Made by a program: the position numbers and the translations under genes. This document shows, piece by piece, positions 1,612 through 4,778 of a stretch of 5,178 nt of DNA; within the stretch, counting starts at the first letter, position 1; each line of letters begins with the position of its first letter. Where the stretch lies: the IMG/VR virus record IMGVR_UViG_2706794691_000005. One strand, given 5' to 3'. The DNA comes from a virus. Taxonomy: Duplodnaviria; Heunggongvirae; Uroviricota; Caudoviricetes. The notes below the pieces were generated by a model that saw nothing but the letters and a program-made list of their open reading frames with translations, ran no database searches and had not been told where the DNA came from.

Positions 1612-1854
1612 ATGACTTTTACCTCTGAACAATTGCGTAAACACGCGCAGGAAATGTTGCGACAGGCGGAACAACTGGAAAAAACAGGTGTAACAAAAGA
1701 TGCCATTCGTCGGGATATGGTGCCAGCGCTCAGGGAACTGATGCAGGCGAAACATCGCGCACAAAAAGCGGTGGATGAGCTCGTTGATTGTGTGGCAGAG
1801 CTGGAAACCAAAGTTGGAAAGTTTGAAAAAATGGTGCAGGAGGTGCTGCGCTGA
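1612..1854 (+). CDS. Hypothetical small coiled-coil protein (80 aa from ATG 1612; alternative TTG start at 1597)
   Basis: ORF MTFTSEQLRKHAQEMLRQAEQLEKTGVTKDAIRRDMVPALRELMQAKHRAQKAVDELVDCVAELETKVGKFEKMVQEVLR, helical with heptad-like spacing. Sits in the nin-region position between helicase and rusA. Its stop overlaps the rusA start (ATGA at 1852-1856). GGAG at 1585-1588 would serve the TTG 1597 start; ATG 1612 has no obvious SD and may be coupled to the helicase stop. Confidence 0.5.
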   Translation: MTFTSEQLRKHAQEMLRQAEQLEKTGVTKDAIRRDMVPALRELMQAKHRAQKAVDELVDCVAELETKVGKFEKMVQEVLR

Positions 1855-2225
1855 TGCGCCATGAGTTTATTTTACCTTATCCGCCGACGGTGAATACTTA
1901 CTGGCGACGTCGTGGCAGCACATATTTTGTATCAAAAGTTGGTGAGCGTTATCGCCGTGATGTGACGCTAATTGTTCGCCAGCAGCGGCTGAAATTAAAC
2001 CTGTCCGGAAGGCTGGCGATAAAGATTATTGCAGAGCCACCGGATAAGCGCCGTCGTGACCTGGACAATATCCTGAAAGCACCACTGGATGCGCTGACGC
2101 ATGCCGGACTACTCATAGACGACGAGCAGTTTGATGAAATCAATATTGTGCGCGGTCAGCTCGTTCCTGGTGGGCGACTGGGCGTGAAGATTTATGAAAT
2201 CACAGGTGATAACGATGGCGCGTGA
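1854..2225 (+). CDS. rusA: Crossover junction endodeoxyribonuclease RusA (Holliday junction resolvase)
   Basis: 123 aa. [17 protein letters not shown]...[31 protein letters not shown]...[11 protein letters not shown] matches the RusA pattern as I recall it (PWPPSNNRYY...[23 protein letters not shown]...DDAQV...KGGRLELTITEM). Strong RBS AGGAGG at 1838-1843, 10 nt before the ATG. Confidence 0.85.
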
Positions 2226-2601
2226 TATTCAGCAGGTTATGGAACGGTGGGGGGCTTGGGCTGCAAACACTCATGAAGATGTATCCTGGGCGTCGATCGC
2301 TGCTGGTTTTAAAGGGTTAATTCCGTCGAAAGTGAAATCACGCCCTCAGTGTTCTGATGATGATGCAATGATAATTTGTGGCTGTATGGCCCGGTTGAAC
2401 AAGAAAAATCAGGATTTGCACGATTTGCTGGTGGATTATTACGTAGGTGGAATGACTTTTATGAGTCTGGCACGGAAACATGGGTGTTCGGATACCTGTA
2501 TTGGCAAGCGCCTGCAGAAAGCGGAAGGGGTTATTGATGGCATGTTGATGATGCTTGATATCCGGCTGGAGATGGACAGATACGTAGAACGAATTATGTA
2601 G
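2215..2601 (+). CDS. Late-gene antitermination protein Q (small Q21/QuuD-like family)
   Basis: 128 aa. [121 protein letters not shown] closely resembles the DLP12 QuuD-type Q protein as I remember it. RBS AGGTGA about 7 nt upstream. Overlaps the rusA 3' end by 11 nt. Followed immediately by a promoter and terminator in the canonical PR'/tR' arrangement. Confidence 0.8.
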
Positions 2602-2605
2602 GTGC

Positions 2606-2635
2606 TTGACCAGACACATTGTCCGGGGCTATATT
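2606..2635 (+). promoter_or_regulatory. Candidate late promoter PR' (sigma70 -35/-10) with Q-utilisation region downstream
   Basis: TTGACC at 2606-2611, 18-bp spacer, TATATT at 2630-2635, starting 5 nt after the Q stop codon. The predicted start (about 2642) is followed by a perfect 6-bp hairpin CGCCAG-caaaat-CTGGCG (2643-2660). Confidence 0.5.
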
Positions 2636-2696
2636 CCTCACGCGCCAGCAAAATCTGGCGTCGGGATTGGAACCCCGGATAGAGACCGCGACAGAC

Positions 2697-2720
2697 ACAC
2701 GCCGCGAGCGTGTTTTTTAT
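2697..2720 (+). terminator. Intrinsic terminator tR' ending the short PR' leader transcript
   Basis: Stem ACACGC (2697-2702) / GCGTGT (2708-2713), loop CGCGA, followed by a T6 run (2713-2718). Predicted leader RNA about 75-77 nt. Confidence 0.6.
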
Positions 2721-2846
2721 TGTCGTATGCACGCGCACATCTGAATTATGGTGGGGCGCATGGGGGAGCTGAAAAGCTCGCCGGTCGGTTTCCCGGTAGT
2801 TCCAACCCTGTGCGTCTCACCACCCGATGATTGGAACCTGACGGTG

Positions 2847-2875
2847 TTGACAGTTTCAGGTTTGCAGTTTACATT
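2847..2875 (+). promoter_or_regulatory. Candidate sigma70 promoter in the cargo region
   Basis: TTGACA (2847-2852), 17-bp spacer, TACATT (2870-2875): perfect -35 with ideal spacing and a 4/6 -10. Confidence 0.3.
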
Positions 2876-2910
2876 TCCCCGCGGTGCTCAAAACACCTCG
2901 AAAGCGGTAT

Positions 2911-2938
2911 CCACACCCGATAGCCATGTGGTTTTTTT
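2911..2938 (+). terminator. Candidate intrinsic terminator/attenuator (weak stem, strong U-tract)
   Basis: CCACA (2911-2915) pairs with TGTGG (2927-2931) around an 11-nt loop, followed by T7 (2932-2938). Lies about 35 nt downstream of the predicted start of the 2847 promoter and 144 nt upstream of the ORF6N start codon. Confidence 0.3.
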
Positions 2939-3081
2939 GTGTCCAGAATTCTTGGTTTATGACCGGGTGTGCGGCTAATACAATACCAGCAATGGAAATA
3001 CGCCCGCCGACTTTCGACGGTTTTGAGCGCCCGGTCACCCTCTCAAAAGGGGTAAATCAAAATATTCGAAAGGACATGTCT

Positions 3082-3645
3082 ATGAATCGCACGTCTATTG
3101 AAAAACTCCCGTCACTTACGCATAACCATCTTCCTGTCATGACAACAGAGCTGCTGGCTGATTTGTACGGAACAGAGCGCCAGCGTTTGACAAACAATTT
3201 CAATCGAAACAAAGAACGGTTTATAGAAGGTAAACATTTTTTCCTGATAGAAGGTGATGCGTTACGAGAGTTGAAGAACGAAAACTCTTTAAGAGTTTCT
3301 GTGAAAATTGCCCGTAACGTTCGCTCCCTCATCCTCTGGACAGAACGTGGCGCAGCCCGTCACGCCAAAATGCTCGAAACCGATCAGGCGTGGGAAGTGT
3401 TCGAAAAACTGGAAGACTGTTATTTCAACCAGAAACAGCCACCAGCGGCACAAAACACATCTATCGAAAATGATGGATGCGCATTACTGAGCCACTTCGA
3501 TAAACACGGTCAGGTTGAGTTCACGGAAAAGGTACCCGCCGATGCGATGGTATGTACTCTGGAACGGTTTAAATTTTATCTGGAGCAACACGGGTGGATC
3601 GTTGCCCGTAAAGAGCAACTGGTGGAGCGGTTGATGCGGTTTTAA
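3082..3645 (+). CDS. ORF6N / KilA-N-like DNA-binding domain protein (phage antirepressor-like), C-terminal half of unknown function
   Basis: 187 aa from ATG 3082, with RBS AAAGGA at 3069-3074 (7-nt spacing). The N-terminal half (LPVMTTELLADLYGTERQRLTNNFNRNKERFIEGKHFFLIEGDALRELKN...LWTERGAARHAKMLETDQAWEVFEKLEDCYF) fits the ORF6N/KilA-N pattern seen in phage regulatory and antirepressor proteins. The C-terminal roughly 70 aa I cannot assign. The six-frame ORF extends upstream to 2884, but that stretch crosses a U-tract hairpin and has no RBS. Confidence 0.7.
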   Translation: MNRTSIEKLPSLTHNHLPVMTTELLADLYGTERQRLTNNFNRNKERFIEGKHFFLIEGDALRELKNENSLRVSVKIARNVRSLILWTERGAARHAKMLETDQAWEVFEKLEDCYFNQKQPPAAQNTSIENDGCALLSHFDKHGQVEFTEKVPADAMVCTLERFKFYLEQHGWIVARKEQLVERLMRF

Positions 3646-3662
3646 AAATTTTTTCCGAAAAC

Positions 3663-3676
3663 TTTACGATCGTAAA
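3663..3676. repeat. Perfect 14-bp palindrome TTTACGATCGTAAA (contains a GATC Dam site); function unknown
   Basis: Read directly from the sequence. Lies 18 nt after the ORF6N stop codon and before the terminator at 3721. Confidence 0.9.
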
Positions 3677-3720
3677 AAGTTGAATATCCTGTTAAGAGTG
3701 GTTACTACGCCACACAGCTT

Positions 3721-3747
3721 AAACCCGCCGATGAGCGGGTTTTTTTA
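3721..3747 (+). terminator. Intrinsic terminator downstream of the ORF6N gene
   Basis: Stem AACCCGC (3722-3728) / GCGGGTT (3735-3741), loop CGATGA, then T-run 3740-3747. Confidence 0.6.
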
Positions 3748-3796
3748 TACCTGAAAAACGGCACAGGACGTTAAACGTGCTGGTGGTCAGATGAGT

Positions 3797-3834: not shown

Positions 3835-3911
3835 GGCCCTTTAGCTCAGTTGGTCAGAGCGAGCGACTCATAATCGCCAGGTCGCTGGTTCAAGTCCAGC
3901 AAGGGCCACCA
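3835..3911 (+). tRNA. tRNA-Ile (anticodon CAU, lysidine type, decodes AUA; ileX/ileZ-like), CCA encoded
   Basis: Cloverleaf read by eye: acceptor GGCCCTT/AAGGGCC, anticodon loop CTCATAA (CAT at 3869-3871), T-loop GGTTCAAGTCC. Strong resemblance to E. coli ileX as recalled. Confidence 0.85.
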
Positions 3912-3912
3912 A

Positions 3913-3989
3913 CCACCACTAGCTCATCCGGATAGAGCATCAACCTTCTAAGTTGACGGTGCGAGGTTCGAGTCCTCGGTGGTGGGCCA
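3913..3989 (+). tRNA. tRNA-Arg (anticodon UCU, decodes AGA), CCA encoded
   Basis: Acceptor CCACCAC/GTGGTGG, D-arm GCTC-ATCCGGATA-GAGC, anticodon stem TCAAC/GTTGA with loop CTTCTAA (TCT at 3947-3949), T-arm CGAGG-TTCGAGT-CCTCG. One-nt spacer from the preceding tRNA. Confidence 0.85.
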
Positions 3990-3991
3990 GC

Positions 3992-4067
<76 letters not shown>

Positions 4068-4070
4068 TAT

Positions 4071-4145
<75 letters not shown>

Positions 4146-4528: not shown

Positions 4529-4778
4529 NNNNNNNNNNNNNNNNNNNNNNNNNNNNNNNNNNNNNNNNNNNNNNNNNNNNNNNNNNNNNNNNNNNNNNNN
4601 NNNNNNNNNNNNNNNNNNNNNNNNNNNNNNNNNNNNNNNNNNNNNNNNNNNNNNNNNNNNNNNNNNNNNNNNNNNNNNNNNNNNNNNNNNNNNNNNNNNN
4701 NNNNNNNNNNNNNNNNNNNNNNNNNNNNNNNNNNNNNNNNNNNNNNNNNNNNNNNNNNNNNNNNNNNNNNNNNNNNNN
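4529..4778. other. Run of 250 N (assembly gap or masked sequence); hides the 5' end of the holin gene
   Basis: Uninterrupted n characters. A 71-codon S21-type holin ending at 4880 would start near 4665, inside this run. Confidence 0.99.

Follow-up and report, generated by a model that had tools for sequence, protein, structure and literature searches.

In the 5,178-nucleotide (nt) stretch of viral DNA analyzed here (Caudoviricetes; IMG/VR record IMGVR_UViG_2706794691_000005; hereafter, the window), the segment at positions 2847–2938 lies upstream of a gene encoding an ORF6N-domain protein of the antirepressor type. We propose, with a probability of about 0.7, that this segment is the 5' unit of an antisense module of the sRNA-Xcc1 type that controls translation of the ORF6N gene, with the leader RNA serving as a decoy for the antisense RNA. 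We are confident that the leader is a conserved functional element matched to sRNA-Xcc1; the specific mechanism of decoy and activation we regard as probable, though less secure. A preliminary description of the same DNA had proposed the segment as a candidate for either a stand-alone small RNA (sRNA) or a leader attenuator of the ORF6N gene, and each idea captures a part, the unit lying in the leader that ORF6N transcription must cross. It does not, however, stand alone: it is one of three matched parts, namely the leader elements a1 and b1, the antisense elements a' and b', and the ribosome-site elements a2 and b2, which co-vary across about 50 specificities.

The unit sits between a C4 antisense RNA and a member of the sRNA-Xcc1 family (hereafter, Xcc1), the latter starting 23 nt downstream of it (Table 1). 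The loop of Xcc1 hairpin 2, b' (CUUUCGA), is complementary both to b1 in the leader and to b2 at the translation start of the ORF6N gene, while the joining strand of Xcc1, a' (GUUUUGAGC), is complementary both to a1 (GCUCAAAAC) and to a2 (UCAAAA). In the manner of a C4-type repressor, b2 overlaps the Shine–Dalgarno sequence of the ORF6N gene, whose start codon is the ATG at 3082, and the complementary elements show compensatory variation between modules. The outer stem of Xcc1 also resembles that of C4, with UAU/G on its 5' side and a CACCC tail at its 3' end as in the C4 consensus, a likeness in sequence that is at most suggestive of excision by RNase P.

To describe this matching more quantitatively, we compared related loci. 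In the nine relatives examined first, which came from Escherichia coli prophages, Stx phages, an Acinetobacter phage, and a Pasteurella phage, the Xcc1 loop, the leader copy, and the ribosome-site copy differed between elements but always agreed within one. The loop/target pairs among relatives included CUUUCGA/UCGAAAG, CUACUGA/UCAGUAG, CUACUUG/CAAGUAG, CUAUCGC/GCGAUAG, CUUCGUA/UACGAAG, and UUUUUGG/CCAAAAA. Scanning viral contigs with the Xcc1 core gave a wider set of 102 non-redundant usable loci, with b1 present in 97, b2 in 87, and the ordered pair of a1 then b1 in 80. When distinct loci were considered, the 6-mer of a locus's own b2 was found again in its leader in 83 of 86 cases, compared with 9.2% for a foreign b2; these 86 loci held 49 distinct b2 strings, and in most loci b2 ended 6–11 nt before the first ATG. 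We also ran the comparison in reverse, starting from the 15-mer of hairpin 1 alone. Forty-three new sites had a U-run and a' downstream, and all 43 had a b1 complementary to the hairpin before a', while the 24 sites without either feature were chance matches in coding DNA. The sole strongly supported partner of the unit is the RNA encoded 23 nt downstream, and on the present evidence the unit is not a cargo-slot sRNA with host targets.

The leader itself is conserved in structure as well as in its complementary elements. Aligned on a1, the leaders of all subfamilies share one architecture, consisting of −35 and −10 hexamers, a gap of about 8–17 nt, hairpin 1 carrying a1, then b1, a CGG, the terminator, a spacer, and Xcc1. 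Across subfamilies, the leader terminator has a short stem, a 9- to 13-nt loop that usually holds CCCG(A/U)YAG, and a U-run, with a spacer to Xcc1 of 20–130 nt. Ten leaders from enterobacteria served to build a covariance model, which gave 97 matches in 100 sources, located upstream of sRNA-Xcc1 in nearly all loci examined, the site in the window (2881–2940) scoring 80.2 bits. In the alignment guided by this model, 97.5% of cells were paired and all nine pairs had changed on both sides. Compensatory cells numbered 112, against 28.3 ± 4.3 in shuffled alignments, none of 500 of which reached the observed value, and the covariation score was 0.486, against at most 0.075 in slid controls. This alignment was fitted to the model, while the listing of terminator arm pairs given below was made independently of it. 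RNAalifold run on a plain MAFFT alignment of 45 leaders returned no consensus structure, because the stems were out of register.

Both stems contribute to this signal. The complementary GGTG/CACC segments pointed out in the preliminary description form hairpin 1, in which all four pairs covary and the pair types include GC, AU, UA, GU, and UG. Its hairpin followed by a T7 tract is likewise present, with a 5-bp stem that begins 35 nt past the −10 hexamer and abuts U7, and a hairpin energy of −3.9 kcal/mol. Across leaders, 26 distinct complementary arm pairs were counted for this terminator, all five of its pairs covary, and the U-run occurs in nearly all relatives. The G–U pairs in the stems restrict the element to the + strand. 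The terminator loop retains the motif CCCG(A/U)YAG (2916–2923) in the different gamma-proteobacterial subfamilies, even as the surrounding stem covaries. Genomes such as those of Azospirillum and Mailhella show the layout of leader and Xcc1 as well; when genomes were scanned for the founding Xanthomonas cassette with a variant of the core pattern, the matches were instead to Azospirillum and others.

The near-consensus promoter of the preliminary description (TTGACA, 17 nt, TACATT) was recovered, with hexamers and a spacing that fall within the sigma-70 pattern (spacing of 16–18 nt). More tellingly, of 64 distinct leaders, 45 are immediately preceded by a promoter match of 9/12 or better, compared with 2.8% of random 60-nt windows; in these 45 leaders the −10 ends 8–17 nt before a1, and the sequences upstream are otherwise unrelated. 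Homology to other modules starts at 2883, and transcription would start near 2881–2883. The unit of promoter, short leader, and hairpin with U-tract is a genuine conserved element on the + strand, and the earlier estimate of a 55- to 60-nt transcript becomes a predicted RNA for which 55–58 nt is plausible.

Taken as a single sequence, the unit looks like chance, and it is the comparison with related loci that identifies it as a conserved element. In the window sequence alone, the 59-nt RNA folds at −8.5 kcal/mol with a z-score of +1.13, no better than shuffles, and the number of promoter-like sites in the region (4, compared with 2.3 ± 1.5 in shuffles) is within chance. The CCGC/GCGG pairing proposed earlier is not supported, CCGC (2879–2882) lying at or before the predicted start where relatives have unrelated bases. 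When the whole window was searched with cmscan, no Rfam family matched 2847–2938 at E ≤ 10 apart from a chance snoRNA match at 2823–2860, and no cis-regulatory family such as a riboswitch did so at that threshold. The leaders of 13 other loci were also without an Rfam match, and the conserved sequence and structure of the Xcc1 leader are absent from Rfam 15. Nor does the leader have the form of a leader-peptide attenuator: the sole open reading frame (ORF) across it (2831–2923, TTG start) begins 5' of the predicted transcription start. From one relative to another, the distance from a1 to b1 changes in ways that break the frame (3, 4, 5, 6, 8, and 10 nt, among others), so that no reading frame is conserved. 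The surrounding stretch of about 360 bp, described earlier as holding no credible ORF, is not empty, since it contains C4 and Xcc1.

Table 1. Coordinates of the Xcc1 module, the upstream isrK-C4 module, and neighboring genes in the window.
Feature	Position	Strand	Basis or remark
Sigma-70-type promoter (−35 TTGACA 2847–2852, 17-nt spacer, −10 TACATT 2870–2875)	2847–2875	+	Consensus scan, 10/12
Hairpin 1 (stem GGUG 2883–2886/CACC 2894–2897, loop CUCAAAA)	2883–2897	+	Covariation; sole stem in centroid fold
a1, GCUCAAAAC, carried by hairpin 1	2886–2894	+	Complementary to Xcc1 3020–3028
b1, UCGAAAG, specificity element	2898–2904	+	Same as b2; complementary to Xcc1 hairpin-2 loop
CGG after b1, nearly invariant	2905–2907	+	Could pair with CCG 2917–2919 in terminator loop
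Weak candidate intrinsic terminator (CCACA 2911–2915/UGUGG 2927–2931; 11-nt loop with conserved motif CCCGAUAG; U7 2932–2938)	2911–2938	+	
sRNA-Xcc1-family antisense RNA	2961–3044	+	Rfam RF02221, 77.4 bits (gathering score 53)
b', Xcc1 hairpin-2 loop, CUUUCGA	3011–3017	+	
a', Xcc1 joining strand, GUUUUGAGC	3020–3028	+	
a2, UCAAAA	3057–3062	+	ORF6N translation start region
b2, UCGAAAG	3066–3072	+	Overlaps Shine–Dalgarno AAGGA 3070–3074
ORF6N-domain gene, 187 aa, antirepressor type	3082–3645	+	Pfam PF10543, 74.4 bits
isrK-C4 module, directly 3' of the Q gene	2606–2837	+	Rfam matches and complementarity
isrK promoter (PR' of the preliminary description)	2606–2635	+	
c4-a1b1	2629–2681	+	Rfam RF03163, 50.1 bits
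isrK RNA, including terminator	2642–2718	+	Rfam RF01394, 77.5 bits
C4 antisense RNA	2744–2827	+	Rfam RF01695, 71.0 bits
C4 target copies, UUGGAAC	2667–2673 and 2831–2837	+	Complementarity
DnaB-like gene	First in window order		Part hidden by N run
RusA	1854–2225		
Q-family antiterminator gene	2194–2601		
Four tandem tRNA genes (Met-CAT, Arg-TCT, Thr-TGT, Gly-TCC)	3835–4145		Between ORF6N terminator and lysis genes
Phage lysozyme gene, start	4880 onward		Near right window end

In the mechanism we propose, the promoter would start transcription near 2882, and the first 25 nt of the RNA would display a1 in the loop of hairpin 1 and then b1, copies of the ORF6N ribosome-site elements a2 and b2. The weak hairpin and U7 would stop some transcripts, giving a leader RNA of about 56 nt, while others would read through into Xcc1 and the ORF6N mRNA. 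Xcc1, probably excised like a tRNA by RNase P, would in its mature form pair b' and a' with b2 and a2, covering the Shine–Dalgarno sequence and keeping ORF6N silent. The leader, offering the same sites with longer complementarity, would compete for Xcc1, in cis as part of the precursor and, as the short RNA, in trans, and with leader in excess ORF6N would be translated. Of this scheme, the sequences compared show the complementarities, their joint variation at all three places, and the conserved promoter, hairpin 1, and terminator; production of the RNAs, partial termination, RNase P processing, and an activating effect of the leader are inferred. The genes located 3' of Xcc1 in 61 loci encode ORF6N, KilA-N, Rha, Bro-N, AntA, or P22_AR domains, and the biological output would therefore be antirepressor control, as in immI of phage P1.

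Predicted energetics are consistent with a decoy. Of 68 loci, 49 have an a1 that exceeds a2 in length and one has an a1 that is shorter, and Xcc1 cofolded with the leader reaches −55.6 kcal/mol, compared with −34.7 kcal/mol for the two folded apart, which makes the leader the better partner for Xcc1. In the modeled minimum-energy fold of the read-through RNA (−65.7 kcal/mol, z = −2.3), leader a1/b1 are paired with a'/b' of Xcc1. A further candidate pairing, between CACACCCG in the leader (2912–2919) and the 5' strand of the Xcc1 outer stem (CGGGUGUG), was set aside: judged by eye, it is kept in the enterobacterial subgroup, with one compensatory change, and not in the other subfamilies.

Several observations weigh against this mechanism. 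Cofolding Xcc1 with the translation start region gives −35.7 kcal/mol against −29.5 kcal/mol apart, a small gain, and repression at a2/b2 is therefore backed by covariation rather than by thermodynamics. The terminator was missed by a standard terminator scan, because its loop exceeds 8 nt, and its hairpin is so weak that the short RNA could be a minor species. The module would also receive read-through from the isrK promoter, and Xcc1 synthesis here does not strictly depend on the leader promoter. Moreover, the isrK and c4-a1b1 models both miss the leader at E ≤ 10, which makes the likeness to those RNAs an analogy of architecture rather than detectable homology. Finally, as far as the account in PMC4825925 extends, a role for an upstream target copy is established for IsrK only, and seqA of phage P4 serves transcription termination.

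The closest known arrangement is that of Salmonella Gifsy-1, where antQ is followed by isrK, the processed stable RNA STnc1160, and anrP, and where translation of the read-through mRNA increases more than 100-fold through the action of the short, terminated RNA IsrK (Hershko-Shalev et al. 2016, PMC4825925). Like the IsrK/STnc1160/AnrP system, the leader would have its own promoter, a short RNA, and a leaky intrinsic terminator, with read-through supplying the mRNA of an antirepressor-like gene along with a stable RNA released by processing. In both, parts of the short RNA are complementary to the RNA encoded downstream; to activate translation in trans is a property of IsrK that, by analogy, the leader may share. 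The position 3' of a Q-type antiterminator gene is also common to the two, and the window holds a true isrK-C4 copy (2642–2827). As in isrK/c4-a1b1, the leader carries the target copies of the antisense RNA upstream and on the same strand. Unlike them, it escapes both models, and its partner is sRNA-Xcc1 rather than C4, the C4 model missing 2961–3044 at E ≤ 10. In addition, leader b1 lies beside hairpin 1 and not in the loop of a second hairpin as in IsrK, and the leader terminator, unlike that of IsrK, has a large and conserved loop. The Shine–Dalgarno sequence of ORF6N is itself overlapped by b2, so no upstream coupling ORF is needed, in contrast to orf45 of the IsrK system.

Similar logic is known from the c4 antisense RNA, with its a1/b1 and a2/b2 elements, in the immI operon of phages P1 and P7 (Citron and Schuster 1990). 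There, as we suppose for Xcc1, the antisense RNA is tRNA-like and is excised from a longer transcript; the ribosome site of an antirepressor operon holds a2 and b2, with which a' and b' pair, the identical copies a1 and b1 are located upstream, and specificity differs between phages by matched changes (heteroimmunity). Unlike c4, Xcc1 belongs to another Rfam family, without a clan link, and its variable specificity element is the loop that would pair at the Shine–Dalgarno sequence. The phage P4 CI RNA, with seqA, seqB, and seqC, is likewise a processed antisense RNA flanked by complementary copies in one transcript, by the description given in PMC4825925; the outcome in that description is premature termination rather than a ribosome-site block, and the likeness is one of description. 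The family sRNA-Xcc1 (RF02221), of which 2961–3044 is a member while the leader falls outside its model, was first found in Xanthomonas campestris; in Xanthomonas, Northern blot and end mapping revealed an 88-nt species of the family (PMC2996969). In the papers searched, it is treated as a trans-acting, virulence-linked sRNA that has at most been noted upstream of an ORF6N gene or symE. Within the searchable literature we found no link of sRNA-Xcc1 to C4-type mechanisms and no mention of matched leader and ribosome-site copies; an earlier description may exist. The layout is thus known from P1 c4 and Salmonella IsrK, and we did not find it described for the sRNA-Xcc1 family.

The main rival to the decoy mechanism is an autoregulatory attenuator resembling the P4 CI RNA, in which mature Xcc1 would bind nascent a1/b1, alter the terminator, and so feed back on transcription of Xcc1 and ORF6N. 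We consider this unlikely as a replacement for the decoy, yet it is compatible with it and the two could coexist. P4 offers a precedent, since its CI RNA, as described in PMC4825925, pairs with seqA upstream and seqC downstream to cause premature termination, and the IsrK authors regard SeqA as a structural homologue of IsrK (PMC4825925). Moreover, the terminator is weak and its loop (CCCGAYAG) unusually large and conserved, which suggests regulated rather than constitutive termination, and b1 abuts a conserved CGG able to pair with the terminator loop, so that antisense binding could remodel the terminator. Pairing of CGG with CCG would form an H-type pseudoknot, although contact with a protein or RNA is also possible. 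This pairing is kept in some variants (GCGU/GCGU, GCCG/CGGU, GUCGG/CCGAC, and GACGG/CCGUC); however, in alignment A3 the core pairs of the pseudoknot never vary and its outer pairs do not beat shuffles, which leaves it without statistical support. Furthermore, IsrK, the sole a1/b1-type terminated RNA studied by experiment, activates translation in trans rather than controlling termination, and constitutive STnc1160 did not lower the IsrK effect (PMC4825925).

We find it improbable that the transcript of about 56 nt is an independent trans-acting sRNA directed at host or phage mRNAs elsewhere, with its proximity to Xcc1 and ORF6N incidental. Its own promoter and U-rich 3' end are shared with many Hfq-dependent sRNAs, the related isrK family is labeled Hfq-binding in Rfam, and the literature treats sRNA-Xcc1 itself as trans-acting. 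Against this, the variable 7-mer of the leader matches the adjacent Xcc1 loop and ribosome site across about 50 specificities, which would be unexpected for a conserved host target, and the unit was never found without an Xcc1-like RNA downstream, barring the chance 15-mer matches in coding DNA. Least credible of all is a chance promoter beside a relic terminator, or a small ORF (30 aa, 2831–2923; 76 aa, 2748–2978): promoter count, hairpin energy, and fold z-score are all within chance for this window alone, and the related block of phage TL-2011c begins about 50 nt past the Rha stop codon, where a gene-end terminator is expected, but promoters stand at the same distance in unrelated contexts at the frequency given above, both stems covary, a1 and b1 lie between promoter and terminator and match the downstream RNA, the a1–b1 spacer keeps no frame, and the 30-aa ORF starts 5' of where transcription is predicted to begin, in a stretch that varies among relatives.

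Searching the whole window against all Rfam families gave four matches above gathering score in the interval upstream of the ORF6N gene (c4-a1b1, isrK, C4, and sRNA-Xcc1), and similarity searches show this region to be mosaic. One block, isrK-C4, whose end lies near 2834–2856, is shared by hundreds of E. coli prophages; a second, 2883–3065, is present in further phages, among them TL-2011c, P13374, and phage 2851, its left edge coinciding with the predicted transcription start and its right edge falling just 5' of the ribosome-site specificity element. The isrK-C4 module of the window has no gene of its own, and the −35 of the Xcc1 leader promoter comes 10 nt after its 3' target copy. In VT2-Sakai, by contrast, an isrK-C4 module of specificity UUGGCGU (b' ACGCCAA) stands between ninE and an ORF6N-like gene, and the window module therefore gives the impression of having been decapitated and joined to the Xcc1 module. 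VT2-Sakai also illustrates that the isrK promoter and terminator accompany the C4 module even away from Q. The terminator tR' of the preliminary description (2697–2718) is accordingly that of the isrK-type RNA; its hairpin has an energy of −7.7 kcal/mol, and that of the ORF6N terminator is −12.0 kcal/mol. A second C4 target in the leader promoter (UUUCAG 2854–2859, facing the C4 loop CUGAAA) was dropped, as it is not conserved in EC12.

Individual loci showed further variation. In E. coli RM8082 (about 1255–1556 of that locus), b' of C4 (ACGCCAA) fits b1 (UUGGCGU), but the 3' copy is UUGGAAC; judged by sequence, this C4 locus is an apparent recombinant whose C4 is mismatched to its own downstream target. 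The same locus was rejected as an example of a stand-alone Xcc1 module, an isrK-C4 module being present upstream there as well. In the TL-2011c locus (1560–2705), isrK, C4, and a Rha gene are followed directly by the leader, Xcc1, and a 225-aa gene. Locus L012 (6572–7271) carries two tandem leader-Xcc1 units about 500 nt apart, with a 94-aa ORF after the first, and a Xylella paper reports five copies of sRNA-Xcc1 at a spacing of about 385 nt. In phage P13374 (1355–1694), small coding sequences in the public annotation, including "antB2" (147 nt) and ORF28, overlie the RNA elements, and in E. coli VL7S7 (1584), a BRO-N gene is annotated from an AUG that is the 5' end of Xcc1 (AUGGUCGGGCGU). These small coding sequences and the BRO-N start are probably misannotations arising from unannotated RNAs.

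By its ORF list and domain searches, the window is a segment of a lambdoid prophage. N runs at 1079–1361, in the helicase gene, and at 4530–4778, before the lysis genes, interrupt it, and ORFs listed across them are artefacts. The tRNA slot corresponds to the position of the tRNAs and stx genes in Shiga-toxin phages. Between ORF6N and the tRNAs, 3655–3748 forms a second candidate short-transcript unit, with a promoter resembling TTTACG...TATCCT, recognized by eye, and a strong terminator at 3721–3742 (−12 kcal/mol). Either this promoter or that of isrK may be the Q-dependent late promoter.

Rfam-based pipelines report sRNA-Xcc1 from many genomes of proteobacteria and phages, and the present comparison offers a concrete, testable mechanism for this widespread family. 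In phages and prophages at least, sRNA-Xcc1 appears to be the antisense core of modules that gate antirepressor-type genes (ORF6N, KilA-N, Rha, Bro-N, and AntA), and the evidence points to the leader as an integral, co-evolving, and previously unannotated part of the module. The module also accounts for small ORFs that are spurious, and gene starts that have been extended too far, in public annotations. The module would also provide a second system for the idea, drawn from IsrK, of an RNA that acts on its own read-through form. More tentatively, the leader may be an antisense-responsive, pseudoknotted attenuator, built on the CCCGAYAG loop and the CGG, and the short RNA a diffusible anti-immunity signal. 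If so, the leader of one prophage would unlock the antirepressor of any co-resident element sharing its 7-nt specificity, and the sRNA-Xcc1 family would comprise at least 50 orthogonal three-part RNA switches that set prophage induction thresholds, rather than trans-acting virulence sRNAs. The naturally orthogonal RNA specificities identified here could govern cross-talk and heteroimmunity among co-resident prophages, including Shiga-toxin phages.

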